Assembly: GCA_022562395.1 (NCBI GenBank)
Contig: JADFPI010000001.1
Location: forward strand, 1,456 to 65,455
Source of the DNA: Patescibacteria group bacterium
GTDB lineage: Bacteria > Patescibacteriota > Microgenomatia > UBA8517
Length of the DNA: 64,000 nucleotides
Reading direction: 5' to 3'
Under the pieces are notes generated by a model that saw nothing but the letters and a program-made list of their open reading frames with translations, made no database searches and was not told the origin of the DNA. Position numbers and translations under genes: made by a program. Positions 11,223-57,558 of this stretch are shown here, piece after piece; position 1 is the first letter of the stretch; each line of letters starts with the position of its first letter.

Positions 11223-11930
11223 ATGAAAAAGATGGTTCTTTGGAAAACTGCCAGTCTAGTTTCTTTGATTTTGGGATTTTTTTTATTGGCTTCGGTTGTT
11301 GTTCCCATAATTTCATACGAGAGCGCTTCTCGCGAAAAGTACCCCGATCTCTTGAGCCCTATTGTCGCAAATAAACCCGTCCCCAAGCTTGAGTCCTTTG
11401 ATTATACTCGGGCGAGTAATTGGTTTATTGATGATTTGCCCACGGAAGAATTTATTTCTTCCAATATTTCTTACTATACTTTTTCTATCCCGAAGTTGGG
11501 AATAGAAAATGCCAGGGTCAATATAGGCGGAGAGGATTTGTCAAAGAGCCTTATTCAATATCCCGGAACTGCCCGCCCGGGTAAAGAAGGAAATACTGTA
11601 GTTTTTGGACACTCAATCCTTCCGCAGTTTTTTAATCCAAAAAACTACATTGCAATATTTTCTACATTGCCTGATTTGGAAAAAGGAGACGCAATAAATA
11701 TCGAATATGATGGAATTTCTTATACCTATATAGTTCAGGATATGTTTGAGGTGCTACCGACGGACCTTTATGTATTGGACCAAGGACAGAATGATTCTTA
11801 CCTATCAGTGATAACTTGTGTTCCTCCAGGACACCCTCTTAAGCCAAGAAGATTAGTGGTTAGAGCTAGAATTGTTCCTTTTGAAGCTTCGAGGCTTTCT
11901 CAACAGATAAATGCGGATATTAGGAATTGA
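11223..11930 (+). CDS. sortase (transpeptidase)
   Basis: N-terminal signal-anchor, GNTVVFGHS (His), LSVITCVPPG (TLxTC-type Cys) and RLVVRAR (Arg). Confidence 0.8.
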   Translation: MKKMVLWKTASLVSLILGFFLLASVVVPIISYESASREKYPDLLSPIVANKPVPKLESFDYTRASNWFIDDLPTEEFISSNISYYTFSIPKLGIENARVNIGGEDLSKSLIQYPGTARPGKEGNTVVFGHSILPQFFNPKNYIAIFSTLPDLEKGDAINIEYDGISYTYIVQDMFEVLPTDLYVLDQGQNDSYLSVITCVPPGHPLKPRRLVVRARIVPFEASRLSQQINADIRN

Positions 11931-43038: not shown

Positions 43039-44706
43039 TTATTCCTCTATCCTCGACCAAAAGATATACACTTCGGATTCGTCGGGGCGCAAAACCCGGC
43101 GAAGGATTTCGACATCTTCTCTGTCTTTTAAATTACTTTCCGTTGCACATCCTTCTGCGTCAACAACCAGTAATCTTTTTACTTCCGGTTTTTCGAAAGC
43201 GTCGCGTGAGGGACAGCGCTGGCCGGTAAAAACGAAATTCTCATGCGTCCAGACCCCCTGTTCTCGCGCAATGGCGTCTTGGTTAAAAATCCTAGGGTCA
43301 CGGCCGGTGAAAAAGGCAATCCAAGGGTAGGGGTCGTCCGGAATATTTGTCAAAATAATTTTGTCATAGTTATCTTGCACCTCATTTAATAAAAGTGCCA
43401 ATTCTTTTGCACCAACATTTCTATAGAGGGGAAGGTGAATCTTGTTGTGGACGAAATACATGTGCAAGAAAAATATTAAGTTAAAAGTTAAAAGTAAAAA
43501 TGCAAAAATCACGACACTTTTTCCTTTTTTAGTTAAGCTGTGAAGAAACCCGATTCCGTAAGCAGCGATAATGCTTATAAATGGGAGCATGAATAAAGCT
43601 CGGTGGAGGTTGGGCGCATCTTCCGTTGTCATGGCAGCAGGAATTGGGGCAAGCAGTAGAAGCAAAAGGGGTAAAGCGCTGTTTTTTCGTTGTGCTATTG
43701 TGACTAATCCTAAGACGAAAAGTAGTGCCCCGACATAGGTCAAAAGCCCCACCCCGACTGTTTGGTAGCGGGTTGGTTTTGGAGTCGTATCTTCTAAGAA
43801 AAAATTGGAGCTGAAATATTTTGCATATTCATTAATAAAATGCCTTGCGTAAACCGAGGGTTTGTTGTGAAACAAGCGGGCGATAAATACTTTGTTTGGC
43901 CCTTCTTCAAAAGGCATTCTTGAAAGTTCATACTGTACGTCTAAATCAGAAAATATTGACACTTGAGAAAAGCGACCCCGGGCCTCTTTGTTTTGAATAA
44001 AGAGAAGAGTAATTATAAATAGTACTCCGAGTACTCCCAAAATGACTTTCTTAATTTTTGTTTTTGAAATTATTTTCCATGAATAGAGAATTATTGCCGC
44101 TATAAAGATTGGAGCTAGCACTCTTACCGTGTGATAAAAGAAATAACTTGTGGCTACAAGCGCTATTGAAGCTAGAGCATGTTTTAGTTTCTGCTCATTT
44201 AGTAATCTCAAAAAAAAGTAAAGCCCAAAAAGTGCCAGAAAAAGTGCAACTACTACTTCGCTCGTTGCCCGACTGACGGAAATGTGCCAGGGAGAAACAG
44301 CCAGTAGCGCGCCTGCTGTAACGGCTAATGGCCAATGGTTAATGTTTGACTTTTTCTTTTTAGCTAACTCCTTAACAAAAAGATAAAGGGGAATGACAGT
44401 CAGGGCTCCGAAAAGGGCAGATGGGAAACGGACGGCGAACTCGTTAGTTCCAAAAACGGCAATCGAGGGAATAGTTAAATAAAAAATTCCAGTTGGCCGG
44501 AAGTCCCCGAAGGTGTTGTAGTAAAGAGCAAATTTATTTCCGCGGTCGTCCTTTCCAGTTTTCAAAATCGAGTATGCATTCCAGCCCACCCTAACTTCGT
44601 CTGCATGAAAGCCAAAAGGAAAGGTTGAGAGGCGATAGGTTCTTAGAAAAAAGGCAAGAAGAAAAACCAGCAAAAGAATTTTTACCTGACGACTAAGCTT
44701 AAACAT
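43039..44706 (-). CDS. GT39/GT83-type (PMT/ArnT-family) integral-membrane glycosyltransferase
   Basis: About 12 TM helices, a first-loop DE motif in FHADEVRVGWNAYSIL, and a C-terminal soluble domain. Confidence 0.75.
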   Translation of the reverse strand: MFKLSRQVKILLLVFLLAFFLRTYRLSTFPFGFHADEVRVGWNAYSILKTGKDDRGNKFALYYNTFGDFRPTGIFYLTIPSIAVFGTNEFAVRFPSALFGALTVIPLYLFVKELAKKKKSNINHWPLAVTAGALLAVSPWHISVSRATSEVVVALFLALFGLYFFLRLLNEQKLKHALASIALVATSYFFYHTVRVLAPIFIAAIILYSWKIISKTKIKKVILGVLGVLFIITLLFIQNKEARGRFSQVSIFSDLDVQYELSRMPFEEGPNKVFIARLFHNKPSVYARHFINEYAKYFSSNFFLEDTTPKPTRYQTVGVGLLTYVGALLFVLGLVTIAQRKNSALPLLLLLLAPIPAAMTTEDAPNLHRALFMLPFISIIAAYGIGFLHSLTKKGKSVVIFAFLLLTFNLIFFLHMYFVHNKIHLPLYRNVGAKELALLLNEVQDNYDKIILTNIPDDPYPWIAFFTGRDPRIFNQDAIAREQGVWTHENFVFTGQRCPSRDAFEKPEVKRLLVVDAEGCATESNLKDREDVEILRRVLRPDESEVYIFWSRIEE

Positions 44707-44788: not shown

Positions 44789-46498
44789 GTGAGAAAGATA
44801 GCTTTACTTTTCTTCTTGACTGGCGTTTTTGCTATTGGCGCCCTACGTGCCGAGGTGGTTTATGGCGCGGGAAAGGGCTCTTTGACCAACCTTGGAGGGA
44901 TGTGGGGTTGGACTGGGACGAACGAGGCGTTTGTACCGCAGCTAGTTATGTACGCTGACGTGCCGCGTTACTACAATAATCCTGGAAAGATTGATGCAGA
45001 TATTCAGACATTCATCAAAGGACACGGCTTCAGTGGTTTCCATGTAGGAGTCGCTTGCCGCTGGTTTGATTTGAATGAGAAGGATTGTCGCAATATTTCA
45101 GGAAGTAACCCCTTGCCAGACCAGAGGACAATTGATGCCTTAAAAATGCTTATTCAAAAAACTCATGCGGCTGGTGGTATGGTCCACATTTGGATGTGGG
45201 GGGACGCAGAACGCGGGCAAAATCCTTCAGTCAGAAGCGATTGGGGCGGTCTTATGGGGAGTGTTGACAAGCGCCTTCAGGACAAAATTGCCCAGGAATT
45301 GGGGTCGCTGGACGGTTGGAGCATGGGCTACGGGTTTGACCTTGATGAATGGGTAGGGGCAAGTAAGTTAAAGCAGTGGCGGGATTATCTCCAAGGGAGA
45401 CTTCCGAAGTTTCATTTTCTCGGCGGTCGACCGGCAGGACCTAATTCTGGCACAAACCACTCGGCTTTTGTTTCTTGGAATAAGCCGATGGACTACTCAA
45501 GTTACGAACATCACCGACCAACTTACAACGTCTATGTCGCCGCGCTTAGCGCGGTCTCCGGACAGCCGGTGATGTCCGAAGATCGCTTCCGCGTCCGTAG
45601 TGGCGGTCGTTCTAAAGACTACAATTTGGACGATACACGACGAGGCCTTTGGACTTCTACACTGGCGGGGGGAGTTGCAAACATCTGGGGGTACCTGAAA
45701 GACGGCGGCTCCCATGATGCCGGCTCGGCGCCTTATCCAAATAAAAACCAGATCAAAACTTATTCGCGCTTTTTTGAGGACAGGTTTAAAAAAGATATGA
45801 GTAGGTGTGGCAGTTTAACAAGTGGAGGTGCAAGGTGTTTGAAACGTTCAAATAACCGGGATTATGTTTTTTATAGAGAGAGTACTTCGTCCATCCAGAT
45901 GGATTTATCGGGAATGAGCGGTTCACAACCTGCCGTAGCCGTTGATACTAAAAAGACATATGGCGAGATTGACCTAGGTGCATTACAAGCAAAAAACCAG
46001 ACCTGGAATGCGCCGTATTCTTCCGACTGGGCCATTGCAGTCGGAAGTTTTGGTGGTGTCGTTCCTCCACCCTCGCTCACGCCTACTCCGACCGGGCAAG
46101 TTTCACCAACTCCTCCTTCTGATGGTTGGATTTTCTGTGTAAATGAACACGGATTCTGCTCATTCTCCGGAACCAAAGAGGTTAGGTACGGTGCTAACGG
46201 TTTCTATCGCTATCTAGTTTTGTCAAACGGTACCGACTGCACTAATGCGGTTTTTGGCGATCCAATTAAGGGAGTATTTAAGCAATGCCACTACAGGGAT
46301 GTTACTACCGTTTCGCCTTCTCCTATACCTAAACAAGGGGATATTGATAATGATGGAGATGTTGATATATTCGATTACAATATCCTTATTGAAAACTTTG
46401 GCAGCACTAATTGCGGTAATGTAGCCGACATTAACGGAGACTGTAAAGTAGATATTTTTGACTACAACATATTAGTTGAAAACTTCGGTGCGACTTAG
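44789..46498 (+). CDS. secreted protein with a C-terminal dockerin-like module (N-terminal putative glycoside-hydrolase-like domain + Cys-rich beta domain)
   Basis: Signal peptide MRKIALLFFLTGVFAIGALRA. The C-terminus is GDIDNDGDVDIFDYNILIENFG...CGNVADINGDCKVDIFDYNILVENFG, two EF-hand-like Ca loops. Confidence 0.75.
   Translation: MRKIALLFFLTGVFAIGALRAEVVYGAGKGSLTNLGGMWGWTGTNEAFVPQLVMYADVPRYYNNPGKIDADIQTFIKGHGFSGFHVGVACRWFDLNEKDCRNISGSNPLPDQRTIDALKMLIQKTHAAGGMVHIWMWGDAERGQNPSVRSDWGGLMGSVDKRLQDKIAQELGSLDGWSMGYGFDLDEWVGASKLKQWRDYLQGRLPKFHFLGGRPAGPNSGTNHSAFVSWNKPMDYSSYEHHRPTYNVYVAALSAVSGQPVMSEDRFRVRSGGRSKDYNLDDTRRGLWTSTLAGGVANIWGYLKDGGSHDAGSAPYPNKNQIKTYSRFFEDRFKKDMSRCGSLTSGGARCLKRSNNRDYVFYRESTSSIQMDLSGMSGSQPAVAVDTKKTYGEIDLGALQAKNQTWNAPYSSDWAIAVGSFGGVVPPPSLTPTPTGQVSPTPPSDGWIFCVNEHGFCSFSGTKEVRYGANGFYRYLVLSNGTDCTNAVFGDPIKGVFKQCHYRDVTTVSPSPIPKQGDIDNDGDVDIFDYNILIENFGSTNCGNVADINGDCKVDIFDYNILVENFGAT
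46334..46495 (+). repeat. dockerin-like module 1 (approximate bounds)
   Basis: DxDxDGDVDIFDYNxLxENFG x2 with a CGN...GxC pair. Confidence 0.75.
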
Positions 46499-46535
46499 AG
46501 ATGAAATCTTTTAAATTTGCTACCATGTAGGTGGC

Positions 46536-48023
46536 ATGAAGAGGTATTTGTTTTTCTTTCCCCTTCCATTTTTTTTGCTTGCATTTGCTTCTTATGTTCA
46601 GGCGCAGACGATTTGCAAGGTTGGCAATGCGACGGGGAATGATACTGCCAAAATTCAGGCTGCAATTAACTCCTGTGCTGGGGGTGGTGAGGTAAAGTTA
46701 AGTTCGGGCAAAACTTATACTGCGGGGACAATTGTGCTTAAAAGCGGCGTTACGCTGAATTTAAACGGCGCGATACTTGAAACCAGTGCAAAGGAAAGTG
46801 ATTTTCAAAGCATTAGTAACGATACGACCCGGATTACATTTGTGGGAGCTGATAAGGGTACCGCCAATGTGGTCATCGTGGGGCCAGGGATGATAAAAAA
46901 ATCATCCCAATCGGATTTCGAGATTGCCTTTTTGCGTTTTGTGGGAAATACCAATCTCACGTTGAAAAATTTTGAAGTGAACTCTTTATCCGCGCCTCCA
47001 ACCGCGGGGGGATTTCACATTACGCTTGATGATAGCGACGGCGTATTGCTCGATGAGATTACTGTACGAGGCAGGCGAGGAGGGGGACAGGTGTGGGGAA
47101 ATGATGGCATTGATGTTCGCTCTCGCAATGTCACAATTAGGAATTGTGATGTGAATACGCACGATGACGGGATTGTAATTGCAACCCCAGAGAAGTACCC
47201 GAAAGGTGTAAGTAACGTTACGGTGGAAAATTGCCGTGTCTCAAGCGATTCTTCCGCTCTTAAGTTTGGGACCGGCACCCACCATGATATTAACAATGTC
47301 ACATTTGACAAGATAACGATTTACGATGGAGCGGGGATCCGTTTTTCCGTATATGATGGTGCAGAATTGAGTAATGTAATATTTTCGAATATTACATACG
47401 AATCGAATATGAATTATCTTTTTGCGTGTGGCGGGGGCGCGAGTGGCCTCGGAATCATGAAAGATTGCGCAGGCCCTGTTGATCGTGACGGCGATGGTAT
47501 TAAAGAGACAGCCGGAGGGTATATTCGTGACATTGTGTTTGAAGATTTTGACATTTTTGATATAGGTAGCAGGAATGCTCACGGTGAGGCATCGCTTAAT
47601 ACTATGGACCGCGTGACGTTTAAAAATATCCGTTTTCATTCCGGATCCGGTTCTCCGCCTCTCGCTCGCTTTCGAAATATCTGTGGGTTGTCCATTTCGA
47701 ATATTACTTACCCCCACCCTACGATTGCCAATCCGCAAAATGATCTGAATATAGAAGTAAGCGTTACGAACGTCCGCTATGACGGCGGTGCCCCCGTCTG
47801 CGGTGGTGCTCTGCCCACTTCGACTTCTACGCCCACAAAAGAGCCGTCTCCGATGCCAACCGGTGGAGATTTAGACTCCGACGGTGATGTAGATATTTTT
47901 GATTACAACGCTCTAGTTGAGAATTTTGGAGCTAGTGTCTGCGGGAATATCGCCGACATTGACGGGAACTGTAAAGTAGATATTTTTGACTACAATATTC
48001 TGGTAGAGAATTTCGGGCGATAA
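46536..48023 (+). CDS. secreted right-handed beta-helix glycoside hydrolase/lyase (GH28-like motifs) with a C-terminal dockerin-like module
   Basis: Signal peptide; GNDGIDVRSRNVTIRNCDVNTHDDGIVIA resembles the GH28 NTDG/DD motifs; ST-rich linker; dockerin. Confidence 0.7.
   Translation: MKRYLFFFPLPFFLLAFASYVQAQTICKVGNATGNDTAKIQAAINSCAGGGEVKLSSGKTYTAGTIVLKSGVTLNLNGAILETSAKESDFQSISNDTTRITFVGADKGTANVVIVGPGMIKKSSQSDFEIAFLRFVGNTNLTLKNFEVNSLSAPPTAGGFHITLDDSDGVLLDEITVRGRRGGGQVWGNDGIDVRSRNVTIRNCDVNTHDDGIVIATPEKYPKGVSNVTVENCRVSSDSSALKFGTGTHHDINNVTFDKITIYDGAGIRFSVYDGAELSNVIFSNITYESNMNYLFACGGGASGLGIMKDCAGPVDRDGDGIKETAGGYIRDIVFEDFDIFDIGSRNAHGEASLNTMDRVTFKNIRFHSGSGSPPLARFRNICGLSISNITYPHPTIANPQNDLNIEVSVTNVRYDGGAPVCGGALPTSTSTPTKEPSPMPTGGDLDSDGDVDIFDYNALVENFGASVCGNIADIDGNCKVDIFDYNILVENFGR
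47862..48020 (+). repeat. dockerin-like module 2 (approx.)
   Basis: GGDLDSDGDVDIFDYNALVENFGASVCGNIADIDGNCKVDIFDYNILVENFG. Confidence 0.75.
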
Positions 48024-48053
48024 TTAATTACTCTCACATTTTCTTCTGATAGA

Positions 48054-49508
48054 ATGGGTTCAGTGCCTATTAACCTCAAACCCTTCTTTATTATTGTTAT
48101 TGGTGGCCTGCTATTTATATTCATTTCTTTATTTAAAACTTATAGCTTTACTTATGCAGCTACCCCGGAGCTTAAATGGAGCGAAGGTTTTGAAGGAAGC
48201 AAGACCGGGGGTACTCATAGTAGCGGTTGTGGAAATCAAGAATATATTAAAGGGAACCCCGGACTGGCTCATTCTGGTGGGGGAGTTCACATGTCCGAAG
48301 CTACTCAAGATCCGTGTAGTTCCGCGATTCGCTATTACCCAACTTGGGATGGCAACATCCCGCTTCCAGTTCTGGTGATGTTTTGGATGAAAACAGATGT
48401 TCCGGGTTACCCGGGAATATCAAAAACCCAAGCTTATAAAATCATTGGTGGGGATAGATTCAGCCCTTTGACGGTTAAAGAGCGGACCGATAAGGGGAAA
48501 AGTTATCAGTGCGTCGCCAGTGTTTGCAATGGTGGCTTTCGTGCAGGTAAATCTTGCTCAAAAAATGGTGAATGTCCCAATAATGCCCTTCTAATGACTA
48601 CTCACATTCGCAGTGATGGGACCTTTGATATTGGCCACGTTCTAATGACCTTCCGCTCCACCAGTATCAAAGCTCCAATTAATGAGTGGTTTTTGCACAG
48701 TGCCTATATTGAAAATGTTGGTAGTGGTTCAAACTTAAAAACTTGGGTGACTATTTATATGAATGAAAAGGAAGTCTCCCGTGGTTACACTTACGAAACA
48801 GAAAATAAACCTTGGACCGGAGCAGCCAAGCATTGGCACATGGGTTGGTATGGTGACCGAAATGGCAATAGTGGACCTTTTAAAATCTACAACGACGATA
48901 TGAAATTTTACGATGTATCGAGCCAGAATGAGGCTGAATCGATTATTGCCAATGAGATTGGTGGAAGCCCGCCGCCGACCTCGCCACCCGGTACGCCAAC
49001 GCCGACGAAAAAACCGACATCTACTCCAGGTGTACCAACGCCTACTCCAACAACTCCGTCCGACCCAAGTGCTAAGTTTAAGATTGGTGATCGAGTCGAA
49101 ACAACGGAAACGGCCAATGTCAGAGAAAGTCCAGGAGAAGGATTAATTGGTACTCAACCTCCTGGTGTTTCCGGAACAGTCGTTGGTGGTCCAGGATTGG
49201 GTGTAGGAGGTGATCATTGGTGGTGGGTGATTGACTACGACACAGGGACTGACGGCTGGAGCCGAGAAGACCTGCTCAAAAAAATAGCGTCAGCTCCATC
49301 TCCTACACTAACTTCAACGCGGACGCCTACACCTTCCCCGAGTATTCCCGGAGATTTGGATAACGACAACGATGTAGATATTTTCGACTACAATACACTT
49401 TTAGAGAATTTTGGAAATACAAACTGCGGAAATGTAGCCGACATCGACGGAAATTGCAAAGTAGATATCTTTGACTACAATATCCTTTTGGAGAACTTTG
49501 GTTTATGA
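48054..49508 (+). CDS. secreted jelly-roll (ConA-like) domain protein + SH3b-like domain + C-terminal dockerin-like module
   Basis: Signal-anchor; PT-rich linkers; SH3b-like KFKIGDRVETTETANVRESPGEGLIGTQPPGVSGTVVGGP...WWWVIDYDTGTDGWSREDLL; dockerin. Confidence 0.7.
   Translation: MGSVPINLKPFFIIVIGGLLFIFISLFKTYSFTYAATPELKWSEGFEGSKTGGTHSSGCGNQEYIKGNPGLAHSGGGVHMSEATQDPCSSAIRYYPTWDGNIPLPVLVMFWMKTDVPGYPGISKTQAYKIIGGDRFSPLTVKERTDKGKSYQCVASVCNGGFRAGKSCSKNGECPNNALLMTTHIRSDGTFDIGHVLMTFRSTSIKAPINEWFLHSAYIENVGSGSNLKTWVTIYMNEKEVSRGYTYETENKPWTGAAKHWHMGWYGDRNGNSGPFKIYNDDMKFYDVSSQNEAESIIANEIGGSPPPTSPPGTPTPTKKPTSTPGVPTPTPTTPSDPSAKFKIGDRVETTETANVRESPGEGLIGTQPPGVSGTVVGGPGLGVGGDHWWWVIDYDTGTDGWSREDLLKKIASAPSPTLTSTRTPTPSPSIPGDLDNDNDVDIFDYNTLLENFGNTNCGNVADIDGNCKVDIFDYNILLENFGL
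49350..49505 (+). repeat. dockerin-like module 3 (approx.)
   Basis: PGDLDNDNDVDIFDYNTLLENFGNTNCGNVADIDGNCKVDIFDYNILLENFG. Confidence 0.75.
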
Positions 49509-50887
49509 CAAAAGTACGTTTACTATTGGCAGTTTTGGCTTTTCTAACCAGTGCTTTTATTAGTCTCTCTGCTCCGGCAGGATCGTTAGCCGCAAAACTT
49601 ATTTTCAATAGCGGTTTTGAAGCGGATTCTCAGATTACAGGGGGATACGCGGATATATCAGGCACAGATCGTTCTGTTTCGTCTCCCAATAATTGGGATA
49701 ATGCCTGGGATTTTCATTTCAATTACAACGGGGGTAACGGTAGCACAAGGAAGGCTGAGATCGTAGACGATCCAGCAGGAGGGAATAACAAAGTACTTCG
49801 TTTATGGTTGAGGGATGCATATGGTGGCTCGGTACGCTCAACTTCGCGAATCCGACGGCTAGGCAGGACGGAGTGGTTCAGCCGAAGGAGAGTCTATGTA
49901 GACCCGGATTTCTTGTTACTCTCGAATTATACAGGATCCTCAAGGGTCATGTTTGAGGAGATCAAAGTTACACAAACCAAGACGAGTCCAAGCTTTCGCA
50001 TTACCGCGGCCTGGGGTGATATAGCCCGAGGGGTGTCTTGGGATATTGAGGCCGAAGACTTGAGAGCTTCTGGTCCAGCATTTTGGACTTGTACGTCAAG
50101 AACTAGCGTTCCAATCGGCGAGTGGTTTACGCTTGAGACATATTACAGGGCGGGAGACGCGAAAAACGGCCGCTATGTCCTTACCTTCCAAAGGGACGGC
50201 GGGTCTAAACAGACGATTTGTGACGTAACCAACTGGACGTATCATCCCGACATGGGGCCATCCTCTCCATGGACCTACAATCCCATGAAACTCTATATGT
50301 CTCGAGGAGATGACGTGGATTGGATTCGAAACAACGGCGGGGTAGCGCAACTCTATTTTGACGACTGGGAGGTGTGGTCTACAATGCCGGATGGAGAAAT
50401 CCCACCTTTAACTTCAACTTTAAAACCGACCCCTACTATTAGTAAGATCCCCGGAGGAAAATTTAAAGTAGGCGATCGGGTGGAAGTGACTGTTACAGCC
50501 AATGTGAAGTTGACCGCAGGACAAGGATTAAGAGGTACTCAGCCTCCGGGTGCAAGGGGAACCGTCCTTGGCGGACCCGAGATTGGGATAGGAGGTCAGA
50601 ATTGGTGGTGGGAGATTGATTATGATTCTTGGCCTGATGGTTGGAGCCGAGAAGATTTACTTGAAAAGGTTGGTGGTCCAACCTCAACGCCGACACCAAC
50701 TCCTGCAAAAGTTCCAGTTCCTGGCGATATAGATGGCGATGGTGATGTTGATATTTTTGACTACAACATTCTTGTCGCAGAGTTTGGAAGTACAGATTGC
50801 GGCAGAGTGGCAGATATTAATGGCGATTGTAAAGTTGATATTTTTGACTACAATTCTCTGGTTGAAAATTTTGGGAGAACAGTATGA
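49505..50887 (+). CDS. secreted polysaccharide-lyase/glycanase-like jelly-roll protein (PL7-like YYRAG motif) + SH3b-like domain + dockerin-like module
   Basis: Signal peptide. RTEWFSRRRVY and YYRAGDAKNGRYVLTFQ resemble the PL7 RxELR / YFKAG motifs (weak). SH3b-like KFKVGDRVEVTVTANVKLTAGQGLRG...; dockerin. Confidence 0.65.
   Translation: MTKVRLLLAVLAFLTSAFISLSAPAGSLAAKLIFNSGFEADSQITGGYADISGTDRSVSSPNNWDNAWDFHFNYNGGNGSTRKAEIVDDPAGGNNKVLRLWLRDAYGGSVRSTSRIRRLGRTEWFSRRRVYVDPDFLLLSNYTGSSRVMFEEIKVTQTKTSPSFRITAAWGDIARGVSWDIEAEDLRASGPAFWTCTSRTSVPIGEWFTLETYYRAGDAKNGRYVLTFQRDGGSKQTICDVTNWTYHPDMGPSSPWTYNPMKLYMSRGDDVDWIRNNGGVAQLYFDDWEVWSTMPDGEIPPLTSTLKPTPTISKIPGGKFKVGDRVEVTVTANVKLTAGQGLRGTQPPGARGTVLGGPEIGIGGQNWWWEIDYDSWPDGWSREDLLEKVGGPTSTPTPTPAKVPVPGDIDGDGDVDIFDYNILVAEFGSTDCGRVADINGDCKVDIFDYNSLVENFGRTV
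50723..50884 (+). repeat. dockerin-like module 4 (approx.)
   Basis: PGDIDGDGDVDIFDYNILVAEFGSTDCGRVADINGDCKVDIFDYNSLVENFG. Confidence 0.75.
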
Positions 50888-52357
50888 GGAAACTTTTTTT
50901 CGCCTCCTTCTTAACTATATTTATCCTTGCACTTCACTTAAATAAAGTAGACGCACAGACTGTATGTAATGTCGGCAGTGCGACTGGCAATGATACCCAA
51001 AAAATTCAAAATGCTATTGATTCCTGTGCTGGGGGTGGCGAGGCAAAGTTAAGTTCGGGCGAGACTTATACTGCGGGGACAATTGTGCTTAAAAGTGGAG
51101 TAACGCTCAATTTAAATAGCTCAACCATTCAGGCCTCTGATAACGAGAATGACTTTATTTCTTGTAAAGAGGGAAGCACTCGAAATTTTTTCATATGCAC
51201 GAGGGCCAAAACGGACAGTGTGGTCATTACTGGACCGGGGGCTTTAACTAAGACTCCGGGGAGCAAGGTTGACCATTCAATGGTGGAATTTTGGAACTCG
51301 AGCAACTTAACCGTAAGGAACTTAACTATTGATACTACCATGGCAGACAAAACGGTTAGTGGTTTTCACCTGAACACCGCTGCCAGCAATAATATTTTGT
51401 TTGAGAGCATTACTGTGCGCGGTGGTCGGGCAGGAGGACAGGTATGGGGCAACGATGGTATCCACCTCCAGGGTTCACAGAACGTTACTGTCAGAAATTG
51501 CGATATTAGTACCCACGATGACGGAATTCCTATCCCCGCTTCATCAGGTGAAGGGGCGCGGAACGTGTTAGTTGAGGATTGTGTTGTATCAAGCGACTCT
51601 AGCGCACTTAAGTTCGGTACGGGCTCCAGTGATAAATGGGACGGTATAACATTCAGGAACATAACGATAAAGAACACTAACGTTGCAATTGGCTTTGCTG
51701 TTTATGATGGAGGTGAGGTAAGCAATGTAATCTACGACAATATAACTGTTGAGTCAGATGTAAAAGTATTGTTTGCCTGCGGCGGCGGCGCTGCAGGCTT
51801 AGGTGGCATGAAAGACTGTGCCGGGCCGGTGGATAGGGACGGAGACGGAGTTAAAGAGACTCCCGGGGGATATATTCATGATGTAACTTTTCAAAACTTC
51901 GAAATCTTCGGCGGCGGCAGTTCGACATCGCACGGTGAAGCTTCGCTAAATACAATGGATAGAGTGACTTTGAAAAATATTAATTTCCACGAAGGTTCTG
52001 GAACGGCCCCGCTGGCATGGTTCAGGGATATATGTGGGCTTTCAATTTCTGGTTTCACCTCGCACTTAACAGGCGACCCGACTAAGGATATGCAAATTGA
52101 TTCGAAGTGTTACCAATTTAAGGCTGGATGGCGGTACGCCAAACTGTGGGGGTGCCGGTTCTACTCCCACTCCTACTTCCAAACCTCCTCTTACAGGAGA
52201 TTTAGACGGCGATAACGATGTTGATATTTTTGACTACAATATCCTTGTTACAAATTTCGGACAGGCTGGGGAAAACCTAGCAGACATTGATGGTAACGGC
52301 GATGTAGATGTCTTTGACTACAACATACTTCTTGAGAATTTTGGTAAGATACCGTAG
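50884..52357 (+). pseudogene. second GH28-like beta-helix + dockerin gene, split by a +1 frameshift near 52104-52110 (track ORFs 50884..52215 and 52097..52357)
   Basis: Paralog of 46536..48023. Frame 1 ends DMQIDSKCYQ.... Frame 2 continues SVTNLRLDGGTPNCGG...dockerin, matching the paralog's SVTNVRYDGGAPVCGG. This is a real pseudogene or a homopolymer error. Confidence 0.6.
52199..52354 (+). repeat. dockerin-like module 5 (lacks the Cys pair: QAGENLADIDGNGDVDVFDYNILLENFG)
   Basis: GDLDGDNDVDIFDYNILVTNFG...ADIDGNGDVDVFDYNILLENFG. Confidence 0.7.
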
Positions 52358-52464
52358 AACGGTTTGTCCATCAGGAATCATCCTCTTGCCACAAAATACT
52401 TTTCCATCATTCGTTTATCTTGAGAAAGAGGTGTTTAAGAGTGTAGAGTCTAAGAGAGGGCAAA

Positions 52465-54480
52465 ATGAAATTTAGCCGTAATTTACTTCCTTTTTTTCTT
52501 GCCGTCTTTTTCCTATCGAGCCTCTTTCCTTTTAGAGCACTAGCCCAGACCGGAGGAGTAGGAGCTGATGGCAAAACCTTTGAAGAGCGCAAAAAAGACT
52601 GGCTTAACTTTGTTCCACAGCCAAGCTCTGAGATGGACATGACGACGCGTCGACGCTACCTTTTTAGTTGGCTAGAGAAGGGTATATATAACAATGTTGT
52701 TTCCGAGTCAATTCAAGACTTTGTCGGTGGTTATTGGCTGGGTGGTATCAGGGCCCAGGGTGGATATGCGGTTATGATATTAAAAAAATATGGCCAGAAG
52801 GGTTCAGGGCTAATTAGCTCAAATGACGAGAGCAAAATCAAGAACAGGTATAGGCGCTCGATAGAAAACAGCGGTTTTTTCGGACATCTCAATCCAAACA
52901 AGCAGGTATATGCAATGGTTGGGACATATCTTTATACACATTACTACGAGAATAGCTTGCAGTTTCCAGTTTACGGTTACCCCACGTCCCAAGACCCAAG
53001 CAATTTACCCTCCTACTACCAAGATCAGTGGCCGACCTTTTCCTATGGCGGGCGTACCTACAAGTTCGGAAGCGGACCATACAATGCCCAGCAACTTTCA
53101 AGGGACTGGTTGCTGTGGGCTTTTGATAAATGGTATGTTGGCAAATCTCCTTCTAAGGGGCCTCGTGAGTTTGATTCCATCGACTATGCTCGAGCCTTTC
53201 CTGGCGCGACTGCTTTGCTTTGGAGTCTTGCACCCAACTCTGACCAAGCAATTAAGACTCGTGCCAAGATGGCGACGGACCTGCTTCTTCTTGACTCGGT
53301 TCTCGATTTCTCGGCCAATTCATGGGGTGGAACTATGAGCCGCGCAGATTACTACTGGATGGGTCGCTCTCCAATTTTTCCAATGCACATCTATTGGGGA
53401 ATGGGAGAAGACACCGACAGGTTTGACGTGCGTGTTCTCTACCAGGTTGGGTATGTCCCTCCTGATGTAATAATTGACGCTGGGGTTCTAACCGACGAGG
53501 CTGATAACTATTGGTACTGGCACACAGAACATCAGGCTAATGGGTTACTTAATCAGTGGGAGTTTGGCAAATGGAACTTTGTTACCAAAAATTACAATAT
53601 TGGCTCGAATGTAGGATGGGGAAAGAGGGGTTGGCAGGTTAATGTAAAAGGTCCTGGAAGAAAAGCGTTTATCAGATTATGGGTTAATCAGGATGACACA
53701 GAGCCTGTGTCAACCAGCGAAGGCAGCCATATGGGCAACAAAGGGAGGCAGTTTCGTAATGCAATTTTTGCAGATGTTGGCTCTCAACCCTTTTTGTGGG
53801 AAAAAAGAGTTAAGACTGATTGGGACAAAGATGAAATTGATAGCGGGATACAATGCTCAAATGTCGCCTCAAGCACCTGGCGCTGTAGCGGTAGCGGATG
53901 GATTTTTAGAAAGAAAGATAAATCCATGGTGGCCATTTCTCTTGGCGCAAAAACCGCCTCAGCCGAGGTGGCAACAGAAGGTGTAGAGTATTCTAATTGG
54001 AATGCTTTCAAAGGCGCAGTAAGGGCAAACGCTTCTTTAACAACAGGCTCTTACACGACATCTCAAGGTTCAACTATTGGTAAAGAGGACTATTGTGGCC
54101 TAAATGCACCCGGAGATTGCCAGTTTCCCTTTGAGCGAATGAACACACAAGACTTTCGAGGAAATAAGATTGTTGAATGGCTCGCTGGTGACAAAATGAG
54201 AGTTTCTCTTCGTGGTAAAACTTGCACTTACGACTTTAGTAAATGGACTTATTCAGGAAGCTGTGGGGAGAAAGTCCCTGGCCCAACAGATACTCCAACT
54301 CCTACGCCATCCAAAGTAGAAGGCGACCTTGATGGTGACGGTGATGTTGATATTTTTGATTACAACTTTTTGATTGAGAACTTTGGCGATGCTAAGTGTG
54401 GTAATGAAGCAGATATAGACGGAAATTGCAAGGTAGACATATTTGATTACAATATTCTGGTAGAGAATTTCGGTAAATGA
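52465..54480 (+). CDS. secreted protein of unknown function (about 600-aa N-terminal domain) with a C-terminal dockerin-like module
   Basis: Signal peptide, PT linker and dockerin EGDLDGDGDVDIFDYNFLIENFGDAKCGNEADIDGNCKVDIFDYNILVENFG. Confidence 0.7.
   Translation: MKFSRNLLPFFLAVFFLSSLFPFRALAQTGGVGADGKTFEERKKDWLNFVPQPSSEMDMTTRRRYLFSWLEKGIYNNVVSESIQDFVGGYWLGGIRAQGGYAVMILKKYGQKGSGLISSNDESKIKNRYRRSIENSGFFGHLNPNKQVYAMVGTYLYTHYYENSLQFPVYGYPTSQDPSNLPSYYQDQWPTFSYGGRTYKFGSGPYNAQQLSRDWLLWAFDKWYVGKSPSKGPREFDSIDYARAFPGATALLWSLAPNSDQAIKTRAKMATDLLLLDSVLDFSANSWGGTMSRADYYWMGRSPIFPMHIYWGMGEDTDRFDVRVLYQVGYVPPDVIIDAGVLTDEADNYWYWHTEHQANGLLNQWEFGKWNFVTKNYNIGSNVGWGKRGWQVNVKGPGRKAFIRLWVNQDDTEPVSTSEGSHMGNKGRQFRNAIFADVGSQPFLWEKRVKTDWDKDEIDSGIQCSNVASSTWRCSGSGWIFRKKDKSMVAISLGAKTASAEVATEGVEYSNWNAFKGAVRANASLTTGSYTTSQGSTIGKEDYCGLNAPGDCQFPFERMNTQDFRGNKIVEWLAGDKMRVSLRGKTCTYDFSKWTYSGSCGEKVPGPTDTPTPTPSKVEGDLDGDGDVDIFDYNFLIENFGDAKCGNEADIDGNCKVDIFDYNILVENFGK
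54322..54477 (+). repeat. dockerin-like module 6 (approx.)
   Basis: See the CDS. Confidence 0.75.
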
Positions 54481-54560
54481 TTATGGCCCTAATTCATAGC
54501 TTGCCCTGAGCTTGTCGAAGGGTTGAAAACTTTGGTAAAAATTAGCCGTTACTTTAACAG

Positions 54561-54592
54561 TTGACAAAACTAGCGCTTTTCATGACTATAAA
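54561..54592 (+). promoter_or_regulatory. Candidate promoter (TTGACA ... CTATAAAT) for the cohesin operon
   Basis: TTGACA at 54561-54566. The -10 is either GACTAT with a 17-nt spacer or TATAAA with a 20-nt spacer. Confidence 0.35.
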
Positions 54593-54634
54593 TACAGTTA
54601 TCTTATTTGGATTTGCAGTCTTAAAGATATTCGT

Positions 54635-54676
54635 ACCCGCCTGCAAAAGCTATCGCTTAAGCGATTGCGGGCAGGT
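54635..54676. promoter_or_regulatory. Nested inverted repeat with a perfect 14-bp palindrome ATCGCTTAAGCGAT (operator-like) upstream of the cohesin operon
   Basis: Palindrome at 54652-54665, flanked by imperfect arms ACCCGCCTGCAA / TTGCGGGCAGGT. Confidence 0.5.
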
Positions 54677-54776
54677 ATACCCAAAATGTTATTTTTAAAA
54701 CTGTAAACTAAAGTATTTTGAGTATATAGGGGTTGAGGAGACCTCAAATTTCGCATACAATTAAAAAGGACGATTA

Positions 54777-55991
54777 ATGCCAGACACAAGTTCAAATTCG
54801 GGGGAGGGTTTATCAAGATTGCTTTCTAGTAAAAAAGACTTATCCCCATTGGTTTTGGTTTTTATTCTTCTTCTCGGTATAGTAGTCGGAGTTTTTTTGA
54901 TTCAGTTCAGGCAAGAGCTTCGAAGGCGCGCAGCGGTAGCCGGAGTGGATTTCTCGCTTGTTCCCAGTAAAACCACCGTTTCTCCAAATGAGAAGTTTAC
55001 GGTAGATATTGTGATGAATACTAACGAATTTAGCGTCTCGGCTACAGAAATCCACGTTGCCTTTGACGCAAATTATCTTGAGGCTGAAAGTATTCAAGAA
55101 AGCGGCTTTTTGCCGGTTGTTTTGCCGCCTGGGCCACAAGTTGGCAGTGGTACGGCCTCAATTATTTTAGGAAGCTTGCCTTCTGACCCAAAGAAGGGAA
55201 CTGGTACGGTAGCCACGATTAATTTCAAGGCGCTTAAAGCATCAGGTGGGCCAACCGAGATTCGCTTTGATTCAGGCACTCAAACTGCCGCACTTGGAAA
55301 TGCCGGGGATGTAACCAGAAATCTCAGCCCAACCAGCGTAACTGTTCAAGGTGTGGTTGCTCCAACTCCGACGAAAACGCCAACGCCGACAAAGAAACCA
55401 ACAGCAACTCCTACGTCCAAACCTGCGCCGACTTCTACTCCCACTCCCAAAGCAACGGCTACTCCAACTCCTTTGCCAACTCCGACTCCTCTACCGAGCC
55501 CAACACCGGGTAAAGCAAACCTTGAGTTTAAAGTGAAATTCCAGGGAATTTCCTCTCAAAAATCGGCTAGGCTAGTAAGAGTGATGTTAATGCAAGGGGG
55601 AAGTGAAGTGTATAGGTTTGACGACGTTAGTGTAACCGCTGACCAATCTGGAGTTTACCTGGGTTCAGTTGGAAATATCACGCCAGGTACATACGACGTT
55701 TATATTAAAGGCCCGATTCATCTGCAAAAGAGATTTACCAGTATTTCCATCTCATCGGGTTCAAATAGCCAAGATTGGTCTGGAGTGACTCTTAAAGCGG
55801 GCGACTTTGACGCCAATAACGTTTTGAACATTATCGACATTGCGGGCATGTTGGCGGAGTACACTGCACTTTCTGTCCCTGCCAATCAGTCAAATCAAAA
55901 GTTCGACATCGACGCAAATGGTGTTATAAATATTATTGACGTAGCTTTGGTTTTGACAAACTATACAGCGTTGGAGGTACCAGGAGACTAA
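54777..55991 (+). CDS. membrane-anchored adaptor scaffoldin-like protein: N-terminal TM, cohesin-like domain, PT linker, beta-sandwich domain, C-terminal dockerin of a second sequence type
   Basis: TM LVLVFILLLGIVVGVFLI. Cohesin-like FSLVPSKTTVSPNEKFTVDIVMNTNEFSVSATEIHVAFDANYLE...GTVATINFKALKASGGPTEIRFD. (TPTP)n linker. Dockerin DFDANNVLNIIDIAGML...DIDANGVINIIDVALVLTNY. Confidence 0.7.
   Translation: MPDTSSNSGEGLSRLLSSKKDLSPLVLVFILLLGIVVGVFLIQFRQELRRRAAVAGVDFSLVPSKTTVSPNEKFTVDIVMNTNEFSVSATEIHVAFDANYLEAESIQESGFLPVVLPPGPQVGSGTASIILGSLPSDPKKGTGTVATINFKALKASGGPTEIRFDSGTQTAALGNAGDVTRNLSPTSVTVQGVVAPTPTKTPTPTKKPTATPTSKPAPTSTPTPKATATPTPLPTPTPLPSPTPGKANLEFKVKFQGISSQKSARLVRVMLMQGGSEVYRFDDVSVTADQSGVYLGSVGNITPGTYDVYIKGPIHLQKRFTSISISSGSNSQDWSGVTLKAGDFDANNVLNIIDIAGMLAEYTALSVPANQSNQKFDIDANGVINIIDVALVLTNYTALEVPGD
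54939..55347 (+). repeat. cohesin-like domain 1 (approx.)
   Basis: See the CDS. Confidence 0.6.
55800..55988 (+). repeat. type-2 dockerin-like module (DxDANxVxNIIDxAxxL x2)
   Basis: Its sequence differs from the six enzyme dockerins. Confidence 0.65.
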
Positions 55992-56597
55992 ATGAAAAAC
56001 CTGTCCCAAAAAAATAGGTTGCTGCTTGCTTTCGTAATTGGAGGTGTAGGGATATTAATTGGAGTTTCCTTGGGCAATTATTTTGTAAAGGGAAGAGGCC
56101 CGAGTCCAACGCCCGAGGTTACAACAGCGCCTTCAAAAAGTAGGGCAACCCTTTCTTTCTATCCCGAGGAAACAGAGGTTGACGTGGGTGATGAATTTAG
56201 CGTTGAGATTAGGCTAAATGCTGAAGGCTTAGTTCTTTCCGGATTAGCGGTAAGGATGGTTTACGAATACGAGGGCGATTTGCCGCTTGAGCCCCAGGAT
56301 GTAAAGATGAGAGTCAATCCAGCGCTAGCTGGAATGGATTGGGTGTTTCCAGTAAATACGATAGAGGTTGATGAGAGGAACAAAAGAGTCGTCGCAGAGC
56401 TGGCCGCAGTCAATTTAAACCCCGGAGGATATCCGGCCGAAGGCTCAGTCACTTTTGCGACTATTGATTTTAATGCTGAAAGCTCAAGCAGTAACGACTT
56501 GGCCTTTACTTTTGACGCTGAAAACACGAAATTACTTACCAAAGATGGACGAGAGGTGGAGATAGAACTAGTCGAGAGGCTGTACAGCGTAGATTAA
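55992..56597 (+). CDS. membrane-anchored cohesin-like domain protein (201 aa)
   Basis: N-terminal TM LLLAFVIGGVGILIGVSL. Cohesin-like LSFYPEETEVDVGDEFSVEIRLNAEGLVLSGLAVRMVYEYEGDL...GSVTFATIDFNAESS. Its start abuts the stop of the previous gene. Confidence 0.65.
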   Translation: MKNLSQKNRLLLAFVIGGVGILIGVSLGNYFVKGRGPSPTPEVTTAPSKSRATLSFYPEETEVDVGDEFSVEIRLNAEGLVLSGLAVRMVYEYEGDLPLEPQDVKMRVNPALAGMDWVFPVNTIEVDERNKRVVAELAAVNLNPGGYPAEGSVTFATIDFNAESSSSNDLAFTFDAENTKLLTKDGREVEIELVERLYSVD

Positions 56598-56646
56598 AAT
56601 TACGCAGTTGACGGGTCGCAACATTCGTCTCTATGATTAAAATACT

Positions 56647-57558
56647 ATGGCAGTAAAACCAACCGTTAAAACAATTCTTGCAATTTTGGTAATTTTAGTG
56701 CTGGTAATAAGCATTCCAGTTGCCGTGTTTTTGATAAGACAGCGGCAGGAGATTAGGGAGAAAGCTGCAGTTCCCACTGGACAGGCAACCGTATCCCTAT
56801 CACCGACGAGTGCAACTTACGATGTTGGGCAGTCGTTTAGTGTTAGCGTTTCTTTTAATACGGCAAATATAGCGATATCAGCAGTCGCGGTCAGGCTAAC
56901 TTATCCCTACTCTGGAACAACACCGGAACTTACAGCCTCCGATATTCAAATAAATCCGTCACTATTGGCGACAGGAAGCTGGAGCTGTCCGGTTAAAACG
57001 ATTACCCCTTCAAGCGGAACGGTTCAAATAGATATAGCCTGTGTAAACACCGATATTAATGGATATACCTCGGCAACCGATACACAACTGGCGTCATTTA
57101 GCGTGGTTGCCAACCAAGTTCCAGCAACCAACCCAACCACTTTGAGGTTCGACCCGAATTTGAGTGTTATTACCCAAAAATCAGACGGGCAAGACGTCCT
57201 TTTGATTCCCACAAGCACTGGTTCTTATACAATTTCCGGAGGTGCAGGTCCAACTCCAACCCCAACTCCAACTCCAACGCCCACCCCGACAAGTGGTATA
57301 GGCGGTGGGGCAACCGCAACTCCAACCCCCACTCTCACAGAAGACGAGCAAGATTTGACACCAACCCCCACTCCTAGCCCAACCCCTACGGGAGGCACTG
57401 GCGGTGGGGCAACCGCAACACCAACCCCCACTCCGACAGAAATTGAGGAGCTTCTAGACTCGGGGGTATCAACGCCTACTTTACTGGCCGCATTTGTAGG
57501 ATTTTTGCTGCTTCTTGTTAGCGCTGGAACCTTCTCAGTGGTATTTTTGAGAAAGTAG
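56647..57558 (+). CDS. cohesin-like domain protein with an N-terminal TM, a (PTPT)n linker and a C-terminal hydrophobic anchor
   Basis: TM ILAILVILVLVISIPVAVFLI. Cohesin-like VSLSPTSATYDVGQSFSVSVSFNTANIAISAVAVRLTYPY...TQLASFSVVANQV. GPTPTPTPTPTPTPTSG linkers. C-terminal LLAAFVGFLLLLVSAGTFSVVFLRK. Confidence 0.65.
   Translation: MAVKPTVKTILAILVILVLVISIPVAVFLIRQRQEIREKAAVPTGQATVSLSPTSATYDVGQSFSVSVSFNTANIAISAVAVRLTYPYSGTTPELTASDIQINPSLLATGSWSCPVKTITPSSGTVQIDIACVNTDINGYTSATDTQLASFSVVANQVPATNPTTLRFDPNLSVITQKSDGQDVLLIPTSTGSYTISGGAGPTPTPTPTPTPTPTSGIGGGATATPTPTLTEDEQDLTPTPTPSPTPTGGTGGGATATPTPTPTEIEELLDSGVSTPTLLAAFVGFLLLLVSAGTFSVVFLRK

Follow-up and report, generated by a model that had tools for sequence, protein, structure and literature searches.

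Cellulosome-type assembly by means of cohesin and dockerin modules is textbook knowledge for a few Firmicutes. In Ruminococcus flavefaciens, the single-cohesin protein ScaE, which is equipped with a sortase signal, receives the X module-dockerin dyads (X-Doc) of ScaB and CttA, while ScaC is a monovalent adaptor composed of one cohesin and a dockerin, and ScaG/CohG represents an autonomous small cohesin. As a rule, the dockerin of a scaffoldin avoids the cohesins of the same scaffoldin. In addition, non-cellulosomal cohesin and dockerin modules scattered in bacteria and archaea were reportedly surveyed by Peer et al. in 2009. Here, we describe a group of genes from a Patescibacteria group bacterium, an ultra-small and uncultivated candidate phyla radiation (CPR) organism, in which three cohesin proteins, termed A, B and C, are encoded directly downstream of six genes for dockerin-tagged proteins. 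The analysis covers a stretch of 64,000 nt (hereafter the window), which corresponds to positions 1,456–65,455 on the forward strand of contig JADFPI010000001.1 (GCA_022562395.1). It is very likely that these genes give rise to a functional cohesin-dockerin surface display system, and with lower, still favourable confidence the region 44789–57558 can be assigned as the cohesin-dockerin surface-display locus of a Microgenomates-type CPR bacterium.

The three open reading frames (ORFs) are located on the + strand at 54777–55991 (A, 404 aa), 55992–56597 (B, 201 aa) and 56647–57558 (C, 303 aa), exactly as given in a preliminary description of this DNA. The same description had mentioned enzyme dockerins, and six genes for dockerin-bearing proteins occupy the region 44789–54480 directly upstream of A. 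The stop codon of A abuts the start codon of B, and a gap of 49 nt separates B and C. Within the 64-kb window cohesins are encoded by A, B and C only, each of which contains a single one. Because a multi-cohesin scaffoldin is missing, the locus is not a cellulosome in the strict sense; by analogy, it might work like a cellulosome in miniature. Protein B and a sortase encoded in the window are identical to MCH7729955.1 and MCH7729904.1, respectively, which are NCBI proteins of a Patescibacteria group bacterium metagenome-assembled genome, B being named a hypothetical protein in the NCBI record. The names attached to homologues are Woesebacteria, Microgenomates or Gottesmanbacteria.

The closest described system is the sca cluster of R. 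flavefaciens (ScaC, ScaA, ScaB, CttA, ScaE), where the scaffoldin genes are clustered as well. Both systems comprise a monovalent adaptor, a single-cohesin protein with a sortase signal and a small cohesin protein, and C matches the R. flavefaciens cohesins ScaE (2zf9), CohG (4n2o/4wkz) and ScaB (5aoz/5m2o). However, in contrast to R. flavefaciens, the host belongs to the CPR/Patescibacteria and not to the Firmicutes, the window holds no multi-cohesin scaffoldin, and A and C display an N-terminal transmembrane segment together with an RQxQEIRxxAA motif. Moreover, the sorting motif is LPDAG/IPVTG-like (LLDSG in this genome) and often lacks a basic tail, and the cargo consists of glycoside hydrolase family 28 (GH28)-like and unknown proteins. 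Neither a cellulase family nor a carbohydrate-binding module (CBM) was recognised among the six cargo proteins by Pfam, NCBIfam and PDB sequence searches.

Next closest is the cellulosome of Clostridium (Acetivibrio) thermocellum. The C-terminal 165 residues of A match the X-DocII dyad of the scaffoldin CipA in sequence as well as in predicted structure and, as in C. thermocellum, one dockerin type on the enzymes is accompanied by a second, X-Doc type, which according to the pairing inferred here would serve anchoring. Unlike the anchoring proteins SdbA, OlpB and Orf2p of C. thermocellum, which rely on S-layer homology (SLH) modules, the anchors of the present locus are transmembrane segments plus a sortase signal. 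The adaptor contains one cohesin versus nine in CipA, has no CBM3 and possesses a membrane anchor of its own, so that A is not a free adaptor of the CipA kind. A further difference is that X-Doc dyads are also found directly on enzymes in relatives. With the scattered non-cellulosomal modules the locus shares single cohesins and dockerins, proteins unrelated to cellulose degradation and a host that is not a classical cellulosome organism. In contrast to them, it forms a coherent, syntenic multi-gene system with six cargo proteins, an adaptor and two terminal cohesins, and the C family is core in the lineage.

Results

Protein A combines a cohesin with an X-Doc dyad

Protein A was assigned as a monovalent adaptor-type scaffoldin by Pfam, PDB sequence search, AlphaFold2 (AF2) and Foldseek. 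A predicted N-terminal cytoplasmic tail (residues 1–21) is followed by a transmembrane segment (residues 22–42; 54840–54902), the juxtamembrane motif QFRQELRRRAA (residues 43–53; 54903–54935), an A-type cohesin (residues 56–190; 54942–55346), a Pro/Thr-rich linker (PT linker; residues 194–246), an X module (residues 247–340; 55515–55796) and a dockerin (residues 341–404; 55797–55988). The cohesin is detected by PF00963 at residues 63–190 with 30.1 bits at a cutoff of 24.1, in agreement with the cohesin that had been placed at 54939–55347.

The dockerin of A gives a sub-threshold match to Dockerin_1 (PF00404) at residues 341–392, with 17.6 bits versus a gathering score of 22.9. Its two calcium-loop repeats, DFDANNVLNIID and DIDANGVINIID, located at 55803–55841 and 55905–55943, display the canonical D-x-D-x-N...D pattern. 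These two loops support the type-2 dockerin proposed earlier at 55800–55988, which is more precisely described as part of an X-Doc dyad. The repeats read NVLNIIDIAxxLxxYTAL and are unlike the repeats of the cargo dockerins, which bears out the earlier view that the dockerin of A differs in type from those of the enzymes. Both the dockerin of A and the cargo dockerins are divergent dockerins.

A PDB sequence search matched residues 303–398 of A to 2b59_B (E 4e-4), the X-module/type II dockerin from CipA of C. thermocellum. The AF2 prediction of residues 240–404, based on an alignment of 23 homologues, reached a pLDDT of 94.6 and a pTM of 0.87 and displays a β-sandwich followed by two loop-helix repeats, with a helix after each calcium loop. 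When the PDB was searched with this model using Foldseek, each of the top 10 matches was a type II X-Doc dyad, either from CipA, from CipB or from ScaA of A. cellulolyticus. These matches cover both modules over 161–172 aligned columns with E-values of ~1e-7 and template modelling (TM) scores of 0.53–0.58, and the matched chains include 5g5d_B, 2b59_B, 5k39_B, 3kcp_A and 4fl4.

In each of A, B and C, the N-terminus contains an uncharged stretch of 19–22 residues that is not followed by an AxA site. These properties, together with the 21-residue tail of A and the conserved transmembrane segment of B, make it unlikely that the three proteins have a classical cleaved signal peptide, a possibility that was considered. 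PT-rich linkers, also part of the preliminary description, are present in A and in C.

Directly after the N-terminal transmembrane segment, A (54903–54935) and C (56737–56769) share the motif [RQ]-Q-x-Q-E-[IL]-R-x-x-A-A. Essentially every C orthologue contains the motif, as do many cohesin and X-Doc proteins of CPR bacteria including enzymes (also P0113–P0153; P numbers denote homologous proteins). Neither B nor any of the six cargo proteins has it. The motif could act as a signal for retention or processing that is specific to the lineage; we know of no family that describes it.

Cohesin modules of proteins B and C

In protein B, an N-terminal transmembrane segment (residues 10–32; 56019–56087), the sequence of which is kept in orthologues, is joined by a short P/T-rich spacer to a cohesin of the B clade (residues 51–184; 56142–56543), and neither a dockerin nor a sorting signal is present. 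In C, a transmembrane segment (residues 9–30) and the juxtamembrane motif RQRQEIREKAA (residues 31–41; 56737–56769) precede a C-clade cohesin (residues 45–198; 56779–57240), a PT/G-rich linker (residues 199–265; 57241–57441) and a hydrophobic tail (residues 276–300) that ends in RK. Searches of B and C with Pfam and NCBIfam returned nothing, with no PF00963 match at E ≤ 1, and almost all of the ~107 homologues of C (~270 aa, 40–90% identity) are without Pfam annotation. Compared with PDB sequences, the C-family profile gave marginal matches (E ~0.1) to R. flavefaciens cohesins only, and structure prediction was therefore needed.

The AF2 model of C, calculated from a 43-sequence alignment, displays a confident β-sandwich at residues 46–197 (block pLDDT 92–98), which is flanked by an N-terminal helix (residues 7–41) on one side and by the disordered PT linker and a C-terminal helix (residues 276–302) on the other. 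A Foldseek search of the PDB with this model yielded cohesins at ranks 1–35 with the exception of rank 32. The best match is 6kgc_A (E 5e-10, target-normalised TM score 0.75), and TM scores of up to 0.77 are found among the matches, which include C. acetobutylicum CohA2, type I cohesins of C. cellulolyticum and C. thermocellum, and ScaE, ScaB and CohG of R. flavefaciens. The overall assignment of C rests on AF2, Foldseek and the sorting signals of its orthologues.

For B, a BLASTP comparison with C gave 31% identity (E 2e-17), and the C-type (CohC) hidden Markov model (HMM) matches B with an E-value of 5e-21. Profile-profile comparison using hhalign connects CohA with CohB at 97% and CohA with CohC at 91% probability. 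Judged by these sequence relationships, B is a paralogue of C, and the E-values of 2e-17 and 5e-21 suggest that it shares the cohesin fold. The preliminary description had termed B and C cohesin-like and had named the lack of a cohesin fold as an argument against its interpretation. The designation is supported by the structural evidence for C, where the model and its Foldseek matches point to a genuine cohesin fold, and by the profile evidence, even though Pfam and NCBIfam are silent.

A phmmer search against 1.84 billion cluster representatives retrieved 276 members with a threshold of E ≤ 1e-3 and 176 with one of E ≤ 1e-10, and in most of the members of the C clade the domain starts near residue 40. 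The C clade is a modest, lineage-restricted cohesin clade that is missed by standard domain models.

Two further features were observed in C. A near-invariant pair of cysteines, C114 and C132 (56986–56988 and 57040–57042), is embedded in the pattern W-x-C-P ... D-x-x-C-x-N, with predicted strands that lie next to each other carrying one cysteine each; the corresponding residues of B are F and A. The Cys pair of the C clade suggests a disulfide and an extracytoplasmic location. In addition, the linker at 57241–57441 exceeds by 33 aa that of P0001, a protein from another assembly which is identical in all other respects, with the extra stretch consisting of a duplicated unit ...PTPT-GG-x-GGGATATPTPT.... 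This difference is a length polymorphism within one species.

A sortase-type signal at the C-terminus of protein C

The C-terminus of C reads ...EIEELLDSGVSTPT-LLAAFVGFLLLLVSAGTFSVVFL-RK and is composed of three parts, namely a pentapeptide, hydrophobic residues and a tail of basic ones. The pentapeptide LLDSG (residues 269–273; 57451–57465, ctt cta gac tcg ggg) is situated in the context E-L-L-D-S-G and is followed by ~25 hydrophobic residues (LLAAFVGFLLLLVSAGTFSVVFL), which reach a Kyte-Doolittle peak of 2.35 and coincide with the C-terminal helix of the AF2 model (residues 276–302), and by RK. Among all ORFs of the window with a length of 80 aa or more, C is the sole one with a C-terminal hydrophobic tail after an LPXTG-like motif.

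About 100 C orthologues carry [LIV]Px[TA]G followed by a few residues and a hydrophobic tail. The motif is LPDAG in 50 sequences, IPVTG in 11, LPDSG in 4, LPETG in 4 and LPEAG in 3, with other variants being fewer, and in >90% of the ~100 homologues LPDAG, LPETG, LPDSG or IPVTG occupies the orthologous position. A few other orthologues are also without the proline (LMESG, LMNSG and LTDAG). In P0002 and P0003, which are 90% identical to C, the sequence is ELPDSG, differing from the allele of the window by a single C-to-T transition (CCA to CTA). Since P0001, which stems from an independent assembly of the same species, also reads ELLDSG, the change to LLDSG is real.

A literal LPXTG motif is absent from A, B and C, as had been noted before, and the LLDSG allele falls outside the LPXTG class of pentapeptides. 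However, the interpretation of the tail as a C-terminal hydrophobic anchor instead of LPXTG could not be maintained, because the orthologues carry LPDAG, IPVTG, LPDSG or LPETG at the same position. Sequence comparison points to a variant, degenerate sortase-type sorting signal and not to an alternative to such a signal. A candidate processing enzyme is the sortase of 235 aa encoded on the + strand at 11223–11930, 45 kb from C, whose identification in the preliminary description is corroborated by PF04203 (E 1.6e-22) and TIGR01076 (43.2, cutoff 39.35), although these matches assign it to no sortase class. Given the degenerate signal on C, this sortase is probably relevant to C itself. The proline of the sorting motif is important in model sortases, and the LLDSG allele may thus stay membrane-embedded; we give its processing by the sortase an even chance. 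Within Microgenomates, sortases are reported to be near-ubiquitous (PMC6744442).

The start of the sortase gene at 11223 is abutted by a gene for a 747-aa protein (8977–11220, + strand), with which it forms an apparent operon. This protein has a central transmembrane segment at about residues 372–395, no C-terminal sorting signal and a weak match to Baseplate_J as its only family match.

Six dockerin-tagged cargo proteins

According to a six-frame scan, all six genes upstream of A share a C-terminal dockerin of the DIFDYN type with two near-identical GD(I/L)DxDGDVDIFDYN(I/A)L(V/I)ENFG repeats, and in 6/6 the calcium loops follow the pattern D-x-D-x-D-G-x-V-D-I-F-D. The cutoff of Dockerin_1 is passed by one of the six, while the others score 16–22 bits. 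Unlike A, B and C, all six possess Sec secretion signals with a short h-region followed by an AxA-type site.

All of the cargo genes are located on the + strand. The first one (44789–46498, 569 aa) encodes the protein that passes the Dockerin_1 cutoff (23.6 bits versus 22.9); it displays a cleavable-type signal peptide, an N-terminal domain without family match and calcium loops at 46340–46378 and 46427–46465, and a PDB sequence search gave no match. The second (46536–48023, 495 aa) encodes a GH28-like β-helix of the polygalacturonase/rhamnogalacturonase type, which matches PF00295 (E 5.7e-9), PF12708 (E 2.9e-10) and, below the cutoff, a PglB-like NCBIfam model (E 8e-27), and has its dockerin loops at 47868–47993. 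The third protein (48054–49508, 484 aa; loops 49353–49478) gave no Pfam or PDB match. In the fourth (49505–50887, 460 aa; Dockerin_1 E 1.5e-4; loops 50726–50851), the dockerin region matches PDB entry 5lxv_B ('Carbohydrate-binding protein') with an E-value of 3.7e-4.

A second GH28-like gene, which carries a DIFDYN dockerin, occupies 50884–52357 (PF00295 E 4e-10; loops 52199–52321). It contains a +1 frameshift near 52101–52106: in a tblastn search with the paralogue encoded at 46536–48023, the alignment runs in frame 1 up to residue 407 and in frame 2 from residue 409. The gene is thus either a pseudogene or affected by an assembly error. The sixth protein (52465–54480, 671 aa; Dockerin_1 E 0.0023; loops 54325–54450) has no PDB match.

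A conserved pair of cysteines (…CGN…G[DN]CK…; 46379–46426, 47907–47954, 49392–49439, 50765–50812 and 54364–54411) is situated between and within the calcium loops in five of the six cargo dockerins, and is not found in the dockerin of the frameshifted gene. The cargo dockerins also give weak NCBIfam matches to 'GC-type dockerin'.

Conservation and gene order in related genomes

A locus search with a 10-sequence alignment gave seven genome loci; in the following, loci are given as L numbers. The C orthologue occupies a fixed position in the order L33, C, PGA_cap, peptidase M50, L28, fmt, def, Wzy_C, MreB, PBP2 (L001/2, L003, L005 and L013–L016). This fixed chromosomal position marks C as a core envelope gene, and C represents a core Microgenomates family. 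In the window, C lies outside of the core neighbourhood, with TauE and an M3 peptidase encoded downstream, which indicates that the cluster has moved in this lineage.

In six loci (the window, L003, L006, L010, L011 and L015), one or more cohesin-X-Doc adaptors and a short B-like gene are found directly upstream of C, with reading frames that abut or overlap; L012 is partial and ends at a contig edge. The B-like gene is present in 6/6 loci with X-Doc adaptors beside C and in 0/8 loci where C stands alone. Other genomes thus repeat the arrangement that had been described for the window, with an X-Doc adaptor followed by a B-like gene and C.

In a rough neighbour-joining tree, the C-type cohesins fall into a B-like, an adaptor and a C clade. 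The cohesins of A, B and C each come from a different clade, that of A being of the A type. Dockerins and sorting signals are never found in the B-like clade, whereas X-Doc is always present in the adaptor CohC clade. In the C orthologue clade a sorting signal is found, a dockerin rarely and X-Doc never. The absence of X-Doc from the B and C clades fits a role of B and C as end-point receptors.

In the architectures of the homologues, cohesins of two types are freely shuffled with X-Doc, the plain dockerin and the sorting signal. Relatives with several cohesins exist as well, P0155, P0161 and P0162 having four and P0113 two. The implied view that X-Doc marks adaptors only finds no support, since in relatives the same X-Doc is also borne by enzymes (GH42-like and β-helix proteins); the same modules further occur on GH39, GH99 and pectate-lyase-like proteins.

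In L003 (GCA_040961665.1), the dockerin-tagged enzymes encoded upstream include a pectate-lyase-like β-helix and a GH99 protein. The C orthologue of this locus carries a plain dockerin in place of the sorting signal, and a separate A-type cohesin protein of 238 aa ends in a canonical LPESG, a transmembrane segment and RYRIKE (the two genes lie at L003 10001–10864 and 11406–12122). This looks like a rewired anchoring hierarchy.

Genomic surroundings

Divergent from the first dockerin gene, the − strand encodes a PMT_2/GT-C membrane glycosyltransferase of the protein-O-mannosyltransferase-like type (43039–44706; PF13231 E 1.4e-11). This adjacency is not kept in L003, and a role of the protein as glycosylase of the PT linkers is speculative. 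The location of this gene next to the cluster is the sole hint at the putative O-glycosylation of the PT linkers proposed in the preliminary description. Over the window (1–64000) the cumulative GC skew climbs monotonically and nearly all genes between 6300 and 57558 are located on the + strand, consistent with one replichore and a strong strand bias. Furthermore, a SAM-I riboswitch is located at 3849–3962 on the − strand (RF00162; 48.9 bits versus a gathering score of 44.4).

Discussion

The locus probably represents monovalent cohesin-dockerin display in CPR bacteria, a variant of the known cohesin-dockerin assembly which includes a cohesin clade missed by Pfam. The preliminary description holds with respect to the cohesins, the X-Doc type, the upstream dockerins and the gene order, and is revised with respect to the anchor 'instead of LPXTG' and the implied restriction of X-Doc to adaptors. 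In the mechanism proposed here, the enzyme dockerins would plug into the cohesin of A and possibly also into B or C. The X-Doc of A would in turn plug into the terminal cohesins of B and/or C, by which the enzymes would be held at the cell surface. C might be fixed covalently to the wall by the sortase, or be held by its C-terminal transmembrane segment if the exchange of Pro for Leu blocks cleavage. As every scaffold is monovalent, the enzymes would be displayed one by one and not assembled on one scaffoldin. The pairing of the A X-Doc with B/C is suggested by analogy to CipA–SdbA and ScaB–ScaE, by the rule that a scaffoldin dockerin avoids its own cohesins, and by the distribution of X-Doc, as the B and C clades are the only ones without it throughout. 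For the specific hierarchy, enzymes to A and A to B/C, with which the clades and the synteny are compatible, the probabilities of being right or wrong appear evenly balanced.

Several observations weigh against this interpretation. A is itself membrane-anchored, which would render a purely anchoring role of its X-Doc redundant, and C stands alone in many genomes, which is at odds with a simple hierarchy. Single chains combining CohA with X-Doc, CohA with a plain dockerin, CohC with X-Doc and CohC with a plain dockerin all occur in relatives, and the pairing rules are consequently not clean at the level of types. In four of the six cargo proteins (460–671 aa), no catalytic domain was detected by Pfam, NCBIfam and PDB sequence search; these family-less proteins may belong to new families of carbohydrate-active proteins or adhesins. 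Further reservations concern the sorting signal. Like the LPXTG substrates of Gram-positive bacteria, C has a tripartite C-terminus, its orthologues include the canonical LPETG, and a sortase is encoded in the genome. However, the canonical Pro of the motif is replaced by Leu in C, the family motif is mostly LPDAG, and most C orthologues lack the basic tail. TIGR01167 (LPXTG_anchor) matches neither C nor seven homologues, and a sortase-signal cohesin protein of L003 reaches 13.9 bits at a cutoff of 15.9. In addition, the N-terminus of C looks like a retained transmembrane segment and not like the cleaved signal peptide of the Gram-positive substrates.

Among the alternatives, a parallel display without hierarchy survives best, and a minor though appreciable probability is attributed to it. 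A, B and C would then be independent anchors, the enzyme dockerins would bind directly to B and/or C, and the X-Doc of A would bind outside of the locus or to the cohesin of a neighbouring A. Its partner could be a sortase-anchored A-type cohesin encoded elsewhere, or A on a neighbouring molecule, the latter giving rise to chains or lattices. Such an arrangement would account for the transmembrane segment and the 21-residue cytoplasmic tail of A, and relatives do contain A-type cohesin proteins with a sortase signal, namely P0138, P0143 and the protein of 238 aa in L003. The occurrence of X-Doc directly on enzymes in relatives suggests a general targeting tag, and C orthologues are found in eight loci without an X-Doc adaptor nearby. 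However, the strict co-occurrence of the B-like gene with X-Doc adaptors and their translational coupling argue against independent anchors, as do the invariable insertion of adaptor genes immediately upstream of C and the lack of any further cohesin gene in the 64-kb window.

Less probable, and on the whole unlikely, is a function in attachment instead of enzyme display. Pairs of cohesin and X-Doc would tether the episymbiotic CPR cell to host or sister cells or form a coat on its surface, with the dockerin proteins encoded upstream being adhesins or wall-remodelling factors. In nine loci C is a core gene amid envelope genes (PGA_cap, peptidase M50, Wzy_C, MreB and PBP2), four of the six dockerin proteins show no known catalytic fold, and a cultivated Saccharibacterium is reported to have an envelope protein with a dockerin domain that is essential (PMC10633639), all of which would be compatible with attachment. 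By contrast, the GH28-like nature of two among the six dockerin proteins is clear, the modules of relatives reside on GH42-like, GH39, GH99 and pectate-lyase-like enzymes, and nothing at the locus points to a host ligand.

That B and C are no dockerin receptors at all but Ig-like/β-sandwich surface or pilin-type subunits (sortase-polymerised or Pam-like), resembling cohesins in fold only, is highly improbable: the blindness of Pfam and NCBIfam to both proteins, the marginal PDB sequence profile (E ~0.1), the sortase-type signal on C, as found in Gram-positive pilins, and the recent description of CPR-specific Ig-fold pilins (bioRxiv 10.64898/2026.03.03.709456) are outweighed by the bona fide cohesins that hold ranks 1–35 save rank 32 among the structural matches of C (TM scores up to 0.77), by the profile-profile homology of B and C to Pfam-positive cohesins, by the fusion of C-type cohesins to X-Doc or dockerins in adaptors, as in scaffoldins, and by the lack of pilin-motif or CnaB-type domains in B and C. 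The Pam pilins of CPR bacteria consist of two domains with an Ig fold and use donor-strand exchange (bioRxiv 10.64898/2026.03.03.709456); a Pam-type identity of B and C was ruled out by architecture, C being without a donor-strand C-terminal domain.

Beyond the display of enzymes at this locus, it is conceivable, though rather doubtful, that the C family serves Microgenomates as a universal, sortase-processed docking platform for enzymes, adaptors and adhesins tagged with X-Doc or dockerins. If so, cohesin-dockerin pairing would serve a major lineage of the CPR as its general system for surface display and possibly for attachment to hosts, RQxQEIRxxAA would be a lineage-specific sorting or retention signal, and the present locus would provide a minimal, tractable example with three cohesins, two dockerin types and six cargo proteins.

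Within the paper library searched, literature searches for cohesins, dockerins or cellulosomes in CPR/Patescibacteria/Microgenomates returned passing mentions and no organised system, which is not proof of novelty, and those for sortases in CPR/Patescibacteria returned general statements only. If the interactions hold, the small set of three cohesins and two dockerin types would bring the full interaction matrix within reach of a few recombinant modules, new orthogonal cohesin-dockerin pairs would become useful for synthetic 'designer cellulosome' work, and a cohesin clade of ~276 clusters (50% identity) would have been missed by standard domain models. The near-ubiquitous sortase of Microgenomates would gain a conserved candidate substrate, and ultra-small, metabolically reduced bacteria would tether pectin- and polysaccharide-active proteins as well as proteins of unknown function to their surface by means of a modular plug-and-socket system.

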